Source: Parcubacteria group bacterium
Lineage (GTDB): Bacteria; Patescibacteriota; Minisyncoccia; Phycocordibacterales; CALRBT01
Length of the DNA stretch: 64,000 nucleotides
Assembly: GCA_943354475.1 (NCBI GenBank)
Contig: CALRBT010000002.1
Span: 16,361 to 80,360, forward strand
Direction: 5' to 3'
Numbering within the stretch: the stretch's first letter is position 1; each line of letters begins with the position of its first letter. A program made the position numbers and the translations under genes. The notes under the pieces are model-generated. The model had not been told where the DNA came from. It did no database searches and saw only the letters and a program-made list of their open reading frames with translations. This document shows, in pieces, positions 10,366-41,335 of this stretch.

Positions 10366-10481
10366 CTGTCAGATTTGAGCAAAGTTCTAGGCGCGAGCCT
10401 TGCGTGTGACCAAGATGTAGTAGGCCTACTTCGCGGGAGCACGCAAGGCGAAGCAACAACGAAATTTGCCAAATCTGACAG
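10366..10481. repeat. intergenic repeat family 1, copy A (12-bp terminal inverted repeats CTGTCAGATTTG / CAAATCTGACAG)
   Basis: conserved 5' GTTCTAGGCG and 3' CAACAACGAAATTTGCCAAAT blocks shared with copies at 17330, 19490, 31185 and 41218. Confidence 0.7.
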
Positions 10482-10486
10482 TTCCA

Positions 10487-11254
10487 CTATTTCGTCAAAT
10501 TCTCGTTATAGTTCAATATCTTCCACCCTCTTCCTGCGGTTATCCATTTCTTCCATGGAGTATACTCGCAGACTGTTACTCCCCCGTTATCCGCTGGGTT
10601 AAAGAAGCTAAGTCTCACGTAAGCAGAATTATGTAAATCTTTTCCGTTTAAAATATATGACAGCAACATCTTAAGGAAGACACCGTGTGTCACCACAACA
10701 ATTCTCCAACTAAAACTGCTTCCCAGAAAATCTAAGCATTTCCGGGCGCGTTTTTTTAAATCATTAAAATTCTCTTCATCAGAATAACGCATGTCATCGG
10801 CATGATAACTCAGATCGATTAAATCAATTATTTTCTTTACTTCAAGGTCGTAATAGGATTTGCCAACAATTTCACTTGGATTTCGCCTTTCGACCAAGAG
10901 TGGACTATATCTAACAGAAGTATTTAGGGACTTATTGATGATTTCCGCAGTTTCGGTGGTGCGCTCATAAGGACTAACGTACATTTTTTGAATATTGTAT
11001 TGCTTCAAATATTCTCCTATCCGCTCTGCTTGCTCTTTACCGGCTTCGGTGAGTCCACCTTTATTATTCTGTTTAATGTGTTCTTTATTGAGAATCGTTT
11101 GACCATGGCGAATAAAGTAAAAACGCTTGGTTCGTAATCTAAAAATAAAATAGAGGAGGAAAACTCCTGCGCCAATAACTACCAGCCAATAATCTAAGTA
11201 TGCCTTCTCCAGATAATAGAGATAAAACTGAAAAATAGTATTGAGTTCGCTCAT
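10487..11254 (-). CDS. histidine phosphatase (PGAM-like) family protein with N-terminal TM anchor
   Basis: FYFIRHGQT (RHG catalytic motif), LTEAGKEQA, N-terminal hydrophobic helix. Confidence 0.75.
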   Translation of the reverse strand: MSELNTIFQFYLYYLEKAYLDYWLVVIGAGVFLLYFIFRLRTKRFYFIRHGQTILNKEHIKQNNKGGLTEAGKEQAERIGEYLKQYNIQKMYVSPYERTTETAEIINKSLNTSVRYSPLLVERRNPSEIVGKSYYDLEVKKIIDLIDLSYHADDMRYSDEENFNDLKKRARKCLDFLGSSFSWRIVVVTHGVFLKMLLSYILNGKDLHNSAYVRLSFFNPADNGGVTVCEYTPWKKWITAGRGWKILNYNENLTK

Positions 11255-11290
11255 GACTTCTCATTCTAACAAATTTAACGAAAGGGTGTA

Positions 11291-11935
11291 CTAAACATCT
11301 GACCTGATATTTGGGTTATCGATAGTATATCCATAAAGACCCCCTTGTTTCGAGAGCCATAGTACATCGGCTTTAGTAAAGGCGACACCAACCACTAATC
11401 TTACCTTGGGCATTGCTTGGATTACCCTAGGCAGAGAGACAAGTGACCAGACTAATTTAAATGCAAAACGCTGTATTCGATCCCCCCAACCAAGCAAAAT
11501 CATGTCAGGCTTGTACATTTGTGAGTACTTTGCAATATGTTGTGGCAAAGGGGCGATAATGCCGAGTTTGTGTTCCCTTGGTTCATTCCAAGGAAACTTC
11601 GATGCAATGTGGGGAAAGGCAAAGAATGTTACCCGCTTTTCTAGACCAAATTGTTTAACAAAATCGACTGCTAATTTATAAAACCTCTCCTCGTACTCCT
11701 TACATTCAATCAGTAATTCAAGCTCTGTTTCTCGAAGGTAGTTCAGTGCTTCCTCGAAGGTCAGCACCTTGTTATCTTTGGCACGATTATGAATCACGAC
11801 AATCGTCTTACCATCAACTCCATATCTAATATCAAACTCCACGCCATCAATCCCAGCCTCTTTTGATTTCTTAAACGCTTCAATCGTGTTTTCGCCCGCG
11901 CCAGCACTCCATCCTCGATGTGCAAATGATTTCAT
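11291..11935 (-). CDS. glycerophosphodiester phosphodiesterase (GDPD) family protein
   Basis: HRGWSAGAGENTIEAF...GIDGVEFDIR (GDPD HR...EN...E.D signature). Confidence 0.8.
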   Translation of the reverse strand: MKSFAHRGWSAGAGENTIEAFKKSKEAGIDGVEFDIRYGVDGKTIVVIHNRAKDNKVLTFEEALNYLRETELELLIECKEYEERFYKLAVDFVKQFGLEKRVTFFAFPHIASKFPWNEPREHKLGIIAPLPQHIAKYSQMYKPDMILLGWGDRIQRFAFKLVWSLVSLPRVIQAMPKVRLVVGVAFTKADVLWLSKQGGLYGYTIDNPNIRSDV

Positions 11936-11947
11936 GAAGTATGAGGT

Positions 11948-12634
11948 TTATTCTGCCTGTACAGACGCACGAGTCATCGGACCAAAAAATCCAAGTGTTG
12001 GTGTGATTCCTTTGCTCTCCTGATATCGCTTAACTGCATTTCTTGTAAGAGGGCCAAAGTACCCTTTGGGAACTCCTTGGGGAATTATCAAAAGAGATTT
12101 GCGTTCTAAAAAAGTTTGCAAAGCAACAACGTCTTCCCCGGTACTGCCCAACGTTAAATTCCTCGCGTATGCATAGACACTGAGGATAGTTGTAGAACTT
12201 TTTTCTTTATCCAACGCAATAACAGTTTGATCGTTCTCCGTGTCGTGTACCAAACTAGTACTTCCACAATCAATTCCACTCTGCAACCTACCACTCAACC
12301 TACCACTTCCCTCTGGATAGATGGAGGCGAACACAATATAGGTAGCTCCTTTTTGATAGAAAATATTACCGTCTACTAGACCAGTCCATGACCTAATGCC
12401 ATAAATTTTCATACTACTCGACACATCTCCCTTCCAAGATTTAATTAGAGAAAACTGCGCGTACTCATCTTCCCTTACAGTTGATGTATGTACTTCATTA
12501 GCGGTACCTAAGAAGATGACATCTCCTCGATCCAACAGCCTCTCTGGAGGTTGGATGCACGAGAGGGCTGAAGCATTTTGTGAAAAACCAAACAAAGTTA
12601 CGGAAATAATAAAAAGGCTAAGTAAAAATTTCAT
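11948..12634 (-). CDS. secreted protein with C-terminal peptidoglycan-binding (PG_binding_1-like) domain
   Basis: signal peptide; C-terminal GEDVVALQTFLERKSLL...GYFGPLTRNAVKRYQESKGI motif. Confidence 0.7.
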   Translation of the reverse strand: MKFLLSLFIISVTLFGFSQNASALSCIQPPERLLDRGDVIFLGTANEVHTSTVREDEYAQFSLIKSWKGDVSSSMKIYGIRSWTGLVDGNIFYQKGATYIVFASIYPEGSGRLSGRLQSGIDCGSTSLVHDTENDQTVIALDKEKSSTTILSVYAYARNLTLGSTGEDVVALQTFLERKSLLIIPQGVPKGYFGPLTRNAVKRYQESKGITPTLGFFGPMTRASVQAE

Positions 12635-39392: not shown

Positions 39393-39456
39393 AAATTTAC
39401 ATTAAAAAATAATTACTTAAAGTATAGCAGGTTGTGAATTCCAATTCCAAAGACTT

Positions 39457-39499
39457 ATCAACACACCCCCGCAAGCGAAGCTTGCGGGGGTGTGTTGAT
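39457..39499. terminator. 20-bp hairpin ATCAACACACCCCCGCAAGC-GAA-GCTTGCGGGGGTGTGTTGAT followed by TTTTTC on the plus strand; its core CCCGCAAGCGAAGCTTGCGGG recurs at 57862
   Basis: read directly from the sequence, downstream of groEL. Confidence 0.55.
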
Positions 39500-39523
39500 T
39501 TTTCTATTGACGTCCTCCGATTC

Positions 39524-41200
39524 CTAATAATCCATTCCTCCCATACCACCTTGCATTCCACCACCCATTCCTCCTTTTTCTTCTTTTGGTTCGTCGGCAA
39601 TTGCTACTTCGGTGGTGAGCATAATAGCAGCGGCAGAAGCAGCATTCTGAAGCGCGGTGCGTGTCACTTTGACCGGATCAATAATCCCCGCCTTAAACAT
39701 ATCTTCCACCATCACATCATTGGTAGCATCATAACCGATACTCTCTTTACCTTTCATAATTTGATCGATGATAACCGAAGCGTTGTCCTTGCCTGCATTA
39801 ACCACGATTTGTGAGAGCGGTGAGAGCAATGCTGAAATTACCACACCGTACCCTGAAGCATCTTCGGCACTCTTGGTACTCTTGGCTGAATCCTTAAACT
39901 GCGCTGAGTCTTTGTGTTTAACTTCAAGCATTCCAGAAACTTTCACCAACGCCACTCCTCCACCTGGGACGATCCCCTCTTCGATTGCCGCCTTGGTCGC
40001 ATTGACCGCATCTTCAATCTTGAGTTTCAAGTATTTCATTTCGGTTTCGGTGGCAGCACCAACACGGATGACCGCGACACCACCTGCGAGTTTTGCAATT
40101 CGTTCATCGAGCTTCTCAACATCAAATTTTGACTCTGTGTTACTCTTTTGTTTCTTGAGCTGAGAGATACGCGCAGTAATCTCACTTTTCTTGCCGGCTC
40201 CACCGACAATGACAGTACTATCTTTCTTGGCAATGACTTTGTTTGCTCGTCCGAGGACCGAGAGCTCTGCCTGGTCTAGCTTTGTACCAACATCATCACT
40301 GATTACCGTTGCGCCAATCGTTACTGCAATATCAGCAAGTAATTCTTTTTTGCGGTCACCGTAGCCCGGCGCTTTGACTGCTAGTACATTAAATGAACCC
40401 CTGAGTTTATTGAGCACAAAGGTAGTGAGCGCCTCACCGTCGACATCATCTGCAATAATCACGAGATCTTTCTTGCCACTTGCCGCAAGCTTTTCAAGGA
40501 GTGGTAGAATTTCTTTCAAGCTTGAAATTTTCTTGTCGGTCACTAGGATTGCGGGGTCTCGATACTCCGCCTCCATCCGTTCAGCGTTGGTTACCATATA
40601 GGCGGAGACATATCCTTTATCAAATTCAAGTCCTTCAACCACCTCGCTCTCGATACCAAATGAAGGTGACTCCTCTACCGTCACAACCCCATCCTTTCCT
40701 ACTTTCTCAATAGTATCTGCGATGATCGCACCAATCTCTTCAGATTCCGCAGAAATAGTCGCAACCTGTTTGATCTCATCTTTACTCTTGATCGGTTTGG
40801 CCATTTTCTTCAAGAGCTCCACTGCATCCGCTGCCGCACGTTCAATACCGAGACGCACATTCATCCCGTTTGCTTGCATGGCGATTCGCTTCATTCCATC
40901 ACGGACAATCGCTTGAGTAAGAATGACTGAGGTGGTGGTACCATCGCCTGCAATATCGTTAGTCTTGGTCGCAACTTCTTTGACAATCTCGGCACCCATA
41001 TTCTCAAATTTATTTGAAAGAGAAATATCTTTGGCAATCGAAACGCCGTCGTTGGTGATTGTTGGAGCTCCATAGCCTTTATCTAAAACCACATTGCGTC
41101 CACGCGGACCGAGCGTAATCTTGACTGCATCTGCTACTTTATTGACTCCATCTCGTAGTGCTTCTCGTGCTTTTTCGCTATACAGTATTTGTTTTGCCAT
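39524..41200 (-). CDS. groL: chaperonin GroEL
   Basis: 558 aa, canonical GroEL sequence throughout, C-terminal GGM repeat tail ([16 protein letters not shown]). Confidence 0.97.
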
Positions 41201-41217
41201 AGTTTTTATAAGTATAA

Positions 41218-41335
41218 ACTTGTTGACTTAGATGAAGTTCGAGGCGGAATCGAGGTTGCGACTAAGGCATACTAAGGCGTATGGCGAAGGAGAAACCGAT
41301 GATTTCAACAAAGAAATTCGCTAAGTCTACGAGTT
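41218..41335. repeat. intergenic repeat family 1, copy E (between groEL start and groES stop); carries AAGGAG-N6-ATG mini-ORF MISTKKFAKSTSFS
   Basis: GAAGTTCGAGGCGGAATCGAGGTTGCGACTAAGGCATACTAAGGCGTATGGCGAAGGAGAAACCGATGATTTCAACAAAGAAATTCGCTAAGTC. Confidence 0.75.

Follow-up and report, generated by a model that had tools for sequence, protein, structure and literature searches.

We analysed a 64,000-nt stretch of a Parcubacteria genome (contig CALRBT010000002.1, positions 16,361 to 80,360 of the forward strand; hereafter the window), in which an original prediction made from the letters alone had pointed to a family of five short repeats, here called copies A to E. On balance, these five sequences are probably copies of a non-coding, palindromic mobile element of ∼125 nt, a hairpin transposon resembling miniature inverted-repeat transposable elements (MITEs) or repetitive extragenic palindromes (REPs), which is mobilised in trans and is widespread in the Patescibacteria. 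GroEL and other proteins of the window place the host among Parcubacteria-type Patescibacteria, and the neighbours of the five copies in the window are housekeeping genes.

A covariance model built from relatives of the repeat in other organisms identified exactly five hairpin copies in the window, all on the + strand and all where they had been predicted, while the next-best matches (E ≥ 0.02) were generic terminator-like hairpins only. The copies are as follows, with extents that denote the paired region and with the minimum free energy (MFE) of the RNA fold and its z-score:

10360-10487, + strand: copy A (model score 98 bits, E 5.5e-21; MFE −65.8 kcal/mol, z −8.3)
17328-17453, + strand: copy B (118.9 bits, E 4e-26; MFE −56.8 kcal/mol, z −8.0)
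19492-19609, + strand: copy C (51.9 bits, E 1e-9, with gaps in the 5' lower arm; MFE −35.8 kcal/mol, z −3.7)
31181-31307, + strand: copy D (77.9 bits, E 4.4e-16; MFE −41.0 kcal/mol, z −2.4)
41213-41339, + strand: copy E (113.1 bits, E 1.1e-24; MFE −44.4 kcal/mol, z −6.5)

With up to three mismatches allowed, the 3' block CAACAACGAAATTCGCCAAAT occurs five times in the window, always on the + strand, against 0.01 occurrences expected, and the long core said to be common to B, C and E is borne out by three occurrences against none expected. The shared blocks of the five copies read (C/A)(G/A)AAGTTC(T/G)AGG on the 5' side and CAACAA(C/A)GAAATT(C/T)GCC on the 3' side. Every copy folds as RNA into a single long interrupted hairpin with an outer stem (11-18 bp in the window), and the + strand fold of A, B, D and E is more stable than that of the reverse complement (for E, −44.4 vs −27.5 kcal/mol). 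The inverted ends first noticed are real, although they are only the outermost portion of a hairpin as long as the element itself.

The individual copies differ in state and in surroundings. Copy A, which lies between tRNA-Val (− strand) and a histidine-phosphatase gene, combines an outer stem (CTGTCAGATTTG/CAAATCTGACAG) and the conserved blocks AAAGTTCTAGGCG and CAACAACGAAATTTGCC with a GC-rich middle stem of its own. Copy B takes up the entire valS-prsW spacer, with TAGGACTTTGTATGACTG paired to CAGTTATACAAAGTCCTA in its outer stem. Copy C, found between a GcrA-like gene and tRNA-Phe (19616-19690), has the same core subfamily as B and E and is degraded, most of its 5' conserved block being deleted. 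Copy D, between a hypothetical gene and a ribonucleotide reductase gene, has a core of a different subfamily and a decayed outer stem, and copy E (outer stem AAACTTGTTGACTTAG/CTAAGTCTACGAGTTT) sits between groES and groEL, antisense to the operon and only ∼12 nt from the groEL start codon. The internal palindromes of A and D that had seemed unrelated to the core of the other three do set these copies apart; both belong to further subfamilies within the family and have stems that compensate. The public record for PrsW (294 aa; 17395-18279) begins at an ATG within copy B; the proteins of relatives (274-276 aa) and an alignment of the junction indicate that the true prsW start is 17455.

The wider family was collected with a two-block search pattern (AAGTTCKAG, 50-80 nt, then ACAAMGAAATTYGC), which yielded at least 115 loci in GTDB contigs, taken as one genome per species, and 114 loci in metagenome contigs. 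Nearly all of them belong to Patescibacteria (Kaiser-, Zambryski-, Nomura- and Saccharibacteria, Gracilibacteria, Peribacteria and others), and a few come from Bacillales isolates (Pseudalkalibacillus, Psychrobacillus, Pullulanibacillus and Alkalihalobacterium). An alignment of 148 sequences, together with the consensus of their individual folds, gave the covariance model, a single hairpin of 53 bp, which has 295 matches in the ∼230 public loci that were fetched; 253 of these are distinct elements, often two or three within 8 kb. The exact B/C/E core was absent from the one-genome-per-species GTDB contigs, and this subfamily is lineage-specific. Since only one of 2.9 million viral contigs matches the two-block pattern, the element is not phage-borne; BLAST searches of a Bacillaceae copy against plasmids and of copy B against phages gave no match. 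Neither the window copies nor copies from elsewhere matched Rfam 15 at the gathering threshold, with nothing meaningful at E ≤ 10, and no description of the hairpin family was found in literature searches on MITEs and repeats of the candidate phyla radiation (CPR) and on the conserved sequence strings. The family is large, is spread across the CPR and is apparently undescribed.

The element is built in layers. Outermost is a copy-specific stem of 16-18 bp, usually with TAR at its start and YTA at its end, followed by a basal helix (GCGAAGUUC/GAAAUUCGC) that hardly varies and in which a G·A and a U·G pair are conserved, an asymmetric conserved loop in which GAGGCG lies opposite CAACAAA, a variable middle stem with a GA-rich internal loop, and an apical module of the form GAG-(5-bp stem, usually CGUAC)-loop-RUGA. 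The two conserved blocks are placed as follows in copy B:

17347-17361, + strand: 5' conserved block, GCGAAGTTCTAGGCG, which forms the 5' strand of the basal helix and the internal loop and is near-invariant in the 148-sequence alignment, partly by construction of the search pattern
17420-17436, + strand: 3' conserved block, CAACAACGAAATTCGCC, which forms the loop strand and the 3' strand of the basal helix and pairs with the 5' block across the conserved G·A mismatch

The blocks on which the search was based are bound to be invariant, but the pattern left the outer, middle and apical helices unconstrained, so that their covariation counts as evidence; the apical GAG-(CGUAC-loop-GUACG)-RUGA was likewise conserved in the 148 sequences without having been selected for. 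Standard pairs fill 81.5% of the cells of the model alignment, against 34-43% when the partners are slid, and 50 of the 53 base pairs have changes on both sides. The covariation score is 0.587, vs at most 0.124 in controls, and none of 500 shuffles attained the observed values. The outer helix is paired in 83.8% of cases (127 sequences), and RNAalifold, run on an unfitted MAFFT alignment, independently recovered the outer and basal helices with many double changes. Real covariation appears only with this wider alignment: the CATAC/GTATG stem with its varying loop, which had been taken for covariation in the window, never changes and hence is not an instance of it. Likenesses to the hammerhead, the hairpin ribozyme and box C/D RNA were considered and were not backed by any Rfam scan.

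Longer forms of the element also occur. At L039 4990-5330 (Pseudalkalibacillus sp. R45), a variant with two Bacillaceae-1 motifs (RF01690) within its 5' and 3' blocks lies directly upstream of a normal copy, which suggests that Bacillaceae-1 can be a passenger or module of the hairpin-element family; Bacillaceae-1 is otherwise a distinct 67-nt motif of two hairpins, whose model the element fails, and its function and strand are uncertain (PMC4333381). A variant from Kaiserbacteria (L007, reverse strand, 2540-2756; also L018, L040 and L097) is extended by a further hairpin of ∼100 nt, nested within the 5' strand of its middle stem, and because its 5-bp target duplication (acact) is intact, it is a composite still able to transpose. 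The sole contig of a viral collection (IMG/VR) with a copy, L234 (9839-9980, 59.6 bits), is of putative viral nature.

Transposition, with duplication of 5 bp of the target, is evident in one lineage in which the element was active recently. In Kaiserbacteria CSBr16_134 and in metagenome contigs related to it, near-identical copies have CAKGACTTACGCGTTT...AAACGCGTAAGTCMTG as their common termini, and at least 12 of them stand between perfect direct repeats of 5 bp whose sequence varies (tttct, aaagt, taaac, taatc, agttt, acact, aattc, aatac). The element, outer stem included, was found with unrelated flanks in different loci. Two of the window copies can be compared with empty sites. In contigs from sample SRR22387759, which represent a close relative (GroEL 94% identical), the site of copy E is an empty groES-groEL spacer of 16 nt without a match to the model, and at the site of copy B, likewise empty in the relative L235, valS and prsW overlap as ATGA, the TGA being the valS stop. 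The ∼40 kb of DNA from relatives (L231-L233, L235 and L236) held no copy by the covariance model. Given these empty sites in the close relative, copies B and E are insertions, and copy B, having entered the valS/prsW overlap, now supplies the valS stop codon. The original description of the repeat as MITE-like is upheld by its inverted ends, its many dispersed copies, the 5-bp duplications in Kaiserbacteria and the empty sites for B and E. We also considered that the outer stems might derive from the target, through insertion into pre-existing palindromes, and rejected this: neither the empty groES-groEL site nor the empty valS/prsW site contains a palindrome, and the same outer stem moves with the element to unrelated flanks.

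The position of the element relative to genes follows a pattern. Among copies between co-directional genes, 102 (68%) are antisense and 48 sense (p = 1.2e-5); the 3' terminus lies directly against the gene next to it, and on the 5' side a spacer of 80-140 nt is left. For 119 elements, an opposite-strand open reading frame (ORF) of at least 80 aa stops within a few bases of the 3' terminus, and its stop codon is TAA in 74 and TAG in 40, coinciding with the terminal TAR of the element, and TGA in only five. The window copies follow the family in that the terminal TAG or TAA of A, B, D and E is the stop codon of the abutting gene, and the claim that all copies are strictly intergenic has to be given up, these four termini containing or touching the following stops:

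10487-10489, − strand: TAG stop of the histidine-phosphatase gene (10487-11254, −), at the 3' terminus of copy A (ORF list, Pfam)
17328-17330, + strand: TAG stop of a valS-like class-I aminoacyl-tRNA synthetase gene (15126-17330), the first triplet of the 5' terminus of copy B (ORF list, Pfam)
31306-31308, − strand: TAA stop of the ribonucleotide reductase gene (31306-33618), overlapping the 3' terminus of copy D (Pfam)
41336-41338, − strand: TAA stop of groES (41336-41740), in the last four bases of the 3' arm of copy E (ORF list, Pfam)

Together these observations suggest how the hairpin would spread. An enzyme encoded elsewhere would move the element by making 5-bp staggered cuts; that it acts in trans is suggested by the lack of a transposase in or near any copy. 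This enzyme, or another conserved protein, may recognise the conserved subterminal core in the folded, single-stranded form of the + strand. In the lineage of the window, the element entered the valS/prsW overlap as copy B and the 16-nt groES-groEL spacer as copy E. Its 3' end tends to lie against the stop of an opposite-strand gene, the terminal TAG or TAA often being that stop. The stop-bearing termini and compact fold may make insertions at gene junctions tolerable, which would let copies persist in very compact genomes.

Several results weigh against a mobile element of this kind. Counted across the family, repeats flank 24 elements vs ∼10 in controls and are clear in one subfamily only. 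The check for target duplications that the original prediction had proposed thus gives a clear answer in Kaiserbacteria, whereas the flanks of window copies A, B, D and E have none and copy C has ACAAA at both flanks, a possible remnant; since there is no other sign of a target duplication, the window copies are not very recent. The search for an autonomous partner, also proposed, came out negative, with no element with the same ends in the window or in ∼1.8 Mb of DNA fetched with the loci. Orphan blocks of either side (5' or 3') that were tried as candidates proved to be diverged, truncated or nested copies; the 1576 proteins encoded beside copies clustered into housekeeping families only, with no enriched family; and the genes of the window include no transposase, reverse transcriptase or integrase (and no Y1/RAYT-like gene) except an unrelated TasR-like gene. 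The arms are a further difficulty, as cores that are 93-98% identical are found with outer arms only 32-44% identical yet still self-complementary, a divergence that is unlike that of ordinary transposase-bound terminal inverted repeats. At loci with homologous flanks (70-84% identity, mostly coding), the element is present in both loci and is better conserved than the flanks (95%, 94% and 98% in three pairs vs 75-83%; in others 80-84% vs 70-79%), with compensatory pair exchanges in situ (C-G to G-C; T-A to A-T or C-G). A decaying selfish insert should not show such conservation and compensatory change in place. Finally, non-canonical pairs in the helices of the + strand are biased (GU/UG 429 vs AC/CA 214; GA/AG 455 vs CU/UC 81), both in sense copies (92 vs 79 and 181 vs 17) and in antisense copies (217 vs 146 and 276 vs 70), so that the fold is optimised for the + strand irrespective of the direction of host transcription. 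This G·U and G·A bias points to a strand-specific, single-stranded function, for which a plain double-strand cut-and-paste MITE has no need. Simple selfish decay does not account for the strand-specific pairing, for an asymmetric core shared across phyla or for the conservation at orthologous sites.

Some of these results would be expected of a functional structured RNA family, one whose core (basal helix, asymmetric loop, GA-rich internal loops and apical GAG/RUGA module) is an RNA motif to which a conserved protein binds, which acts either in cis where genes meet or as a small RNA that is set free, and for which transposition only multiplies the copies. The bias in pairing, seen alike in sense and antisense copies, the compensatory changes and superior conservation of orthologous copies, and the occurrence of the core in many CPR lineages and some Bacillales all speak for it, as do copies in the sense orientation in rRNA and tRNA operons: L083 has one upstream of 23S, and four elements (those at L080, L048 and L077 and copy C of the window) end 4-7 nt before a tRNA on the same strand. 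The original remark that copy C abuts tRNA-Phe is correct, as it ends 7 nt before the tRNA, but the link is incidental, only eight of 253 elements lying within 150 nt of a tRNA, which is about the chance rate. No conserved promoter precedes the element (information content is ∼0 beyond the 5' terminus) and T-runs are not enriched after the 3' end of the hairpin; copies B and E cannot carry a promoter of their own, given that E stands ∼12 nt from the groEL start and B fills a gene junction, and both are dispensable, as close relatives lack them. Considering in addition that 68% of copies between co-directional genes are antisense and that no Rfam family matches, we regard an RNA family as less likely than the mobile element, though as its serious competitor.

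An unlikely further reading is a new kind of strand-specific 'structured transposon', whose conserved GA-rich, K-turn-like core would function as a single strand, probably of RNA, to which a protein conserved in the CPR or Bacillales binds and which selection keeps at individual loci. Such an element would spread in a way that keeps the arms complementary while they diverge very fast, for example through an intermediate whose one arm serves as template for the second or corrects it.

Two further explanations take the hairpin to serve the host at gene ends. In the first, it is a site recognised in DNA, similar to REPs or bacterial interspersed mosaic elements, by a nucleoid protein, a topoisomerase or the replication or uptake machinery, with a polarity relative to replication. 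Its density (five per 64 kb), its position at gene ends, its conservation in situ and its orientation bias (102 antisense vs 48 sense) agree with such a role, and every one of the window copies is on the strand whose GC skew is negative, B and C, within a gene island on the + strand, among them. However, elements in one 8-kb locus are often in opposite orientations, replication and transcription are not separable as sources of the bias with five informative pairs (three of them from the window), the strand-specific G·U and G·A signal favours a single-stranded form over recognition of a duplex, and mobility that generates target duplications is unlike that of REP/RAYT systems; we therefore consider this explanation improbable. 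In the second, the hairpin is a repeated transcription terminator or an intercistronic RNA-processing signal (e.g. an RNase III site), as might be suspected from a long, stable hairpin that stands right after stop codons in half of the copies and between cistrons such as groES and groEL. This we judge very improbable: neither side has a T/U tract (the flanks are A/T-mixed, without enrichment of T5), copy E lies inside the groESL operon, whose genes have to be transcribed together, the fold is optimised for a strand that in most cases is not that of the mRNA, and relatives manage without the element at the same junctions.

The idea of a leader-peptide or attenuator module, in which a peptide of 14-18 residues (MI[PS]TKKF...) is translated from the 3' part of the repeat, can effectively be regarded as refuted. 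The mini-ORFs on which it was built do exist in copies C and E, where AAGGAG is followed after 6 nt by ATG:

19569-19625, + strand: mini-ORF of copy C, MIPTKKFVKYGSPHKKPR, with its ATG at 19569; accidental, without family conservation
41299-41343, + strand: mini-ORF of copy E, MISTKKFAKSTSFS, with its ATG at 41299; accidental, without family conservation

Copy B, however, has no start codon there. Across the family, an ATG within 45 nt in the frame that reads T-T-K-F-A is found in 38 of 196 members, and a Shine-Dalgarno sequence with ATG in only four (2%), vs six and six in the other two frames, which is why the idea fails. The 3' block, for which the original prediction had noted a shared reading frame in the five window copies, is conserved as a nucleotide sequence that forms one side of a helix, and most copies are antisense to the neighbouring genes. 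The element encodes no peptide.

Comparison with known systems, made for Correia, RUP and bcr1 on their described features, brings out how the preferred reading, a hairpin element mobilised in trans, relates to established types of repeat. Like the Correia elements of Neisseria, the pneumococcal RUP and bcr1 of Bacillus cereus, it is a non-coding element of similar size (100-160 nt) in many dispersed intergenic copies, with inverted ends, short target duplications, a long hairpin when transcribed and probable mobilisation in trans. It departs from them in that the outermost 8-16 bp vary by copy while a subterminal core is conserved across phylum-level lineages, in that its two conserved ends are unequal (GAAGTTCGAGG vs the complement of ACAAAGAAATTC), in its 5-bp duplication without a fixed target sequence (TA for Correia and RUP, TTTAT for bcr1), in the lack of a cognate insertion sequence in the window and ∼1.8 Mb of loci, and in the conservation of copies at orthologous sites. 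With REP/REPIN-RAYT systems it shares high-copy extragenic palindromes after stop codons and a hairpin kept by compensatory change, and strand-specific recognition of a single strand, as by the Y1 HUH enzymes of the RAYT type, is plausible, in which case a single-copy mobilising gene would lie elsewhere. Unlike these, its unit is ∼125 nt with several internal loops, not a REP of 20-40 nt or a doublet, it has no 5' GTAG, it makes 5-bp duplications, which HUH transposition does not, and no RAYT-like gene lies in the window.

The ERIC/IRU repeats of Enterobacteria (imperfect palindromes of ∼127 bp) resemble the element in size, in being palindromic over their whole length and in occupying transcribed intergenic sites of operons, but they are found in other taxa, no sequence relation is established, and the orientation bias, use of stop codons and cross-phylum core set the element apart. 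Integron attC sites are likewise imperfect palindromes with conserved ends and a variable centre, with the same orientation locally and with a strand-specific single-stranded fold that has conserved mismatches; here the flanks are essential housekeeping genes and not cassettes, there is no integrase, the boxes differ from RYYYAAC/GTTRRRY, and 5-bp duplications occur. Palindromes derived from IS200/IS605, finally, have no inverted ends or duplication and a fixed tetra- or pentanucleotide target, whereas the element has inverted ends and variable 5-bp duplications.

Other features of the window were seen along the way. RNase P RNA (bacterial class A) lies at 30082-30440, ∼740 nt from copy D, with only 106.8 bits vs a gathering score of 100, as is usual for a divergent RNase P RNA of the CPR. 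The 3' part of tRNA-Glu is matched at 90% identity by a 49-nt segment that recurs at a distance of 400 nt (12702-12750 and 13106-13154), and two tandem units of 73 nt, 97% identical, abut tRNA-Glu (13175-13320); these repeats could be the scar of an element that integrated at the tRNA. Short repeats of the TAGGTTATAGGG type, both direct and inverted, occur intergenically at 23607-23720, 56990-57018 and 57797-57834 and are unrelated to the hairpin family.

The TasR-like gene mentioned above is an ORF of 537 aa (44298-45911, − strand) that scores 114 bits, above the cutoff of 100, with the NCBIfam model of the TIGR-Tas RNA-guided endonuclease, a family described in PMC12045711, and that also has a weak match to IS110 transposases. 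The island around it (43200-46700 in the window) is GC-richer (0.49-0.53), and the ORF has on both sides ∼1 kb of non-coding repeats with a period of ∼290 nt (43485-44182 and 45892-46690); TRF found no short-period array around it. The close relative L231 has no such island between SBP_bac_5/SecG and groES. Possibly, 43200-46700 is a TIGR-Tas locus of an unusual type within a Parcubacteria genome.

The genomes of Patescibacteria are tiny and densely packed and are thought to be poor in repeats. Here, a single element of 125 nt occurs about once per 13 kb, sits in essential operons (groESL and valS-prsW, and ribosomal-protein clusters elsewhere) and even provides the stop codons of genes. A model of the family would correct gene calls such as the PrsW start in copy B and would mark many 'intergenic' hairpins in metagenome-assembled genomes of the CPR. 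With more than 250 copies, the family is a large, clean data set on the recognition of mobile hairpins, on the optimisation of one strand and on possible domestication in the CPR. Should the core prove to be an RNA motif that binds a protein, it would be among the most abundant structured RNAs of the uncultivated CPR, and if the 'structured transposon' is true, it would represent both a widespread new class of CPR non-coding RNA and a new mode of mobilisation.

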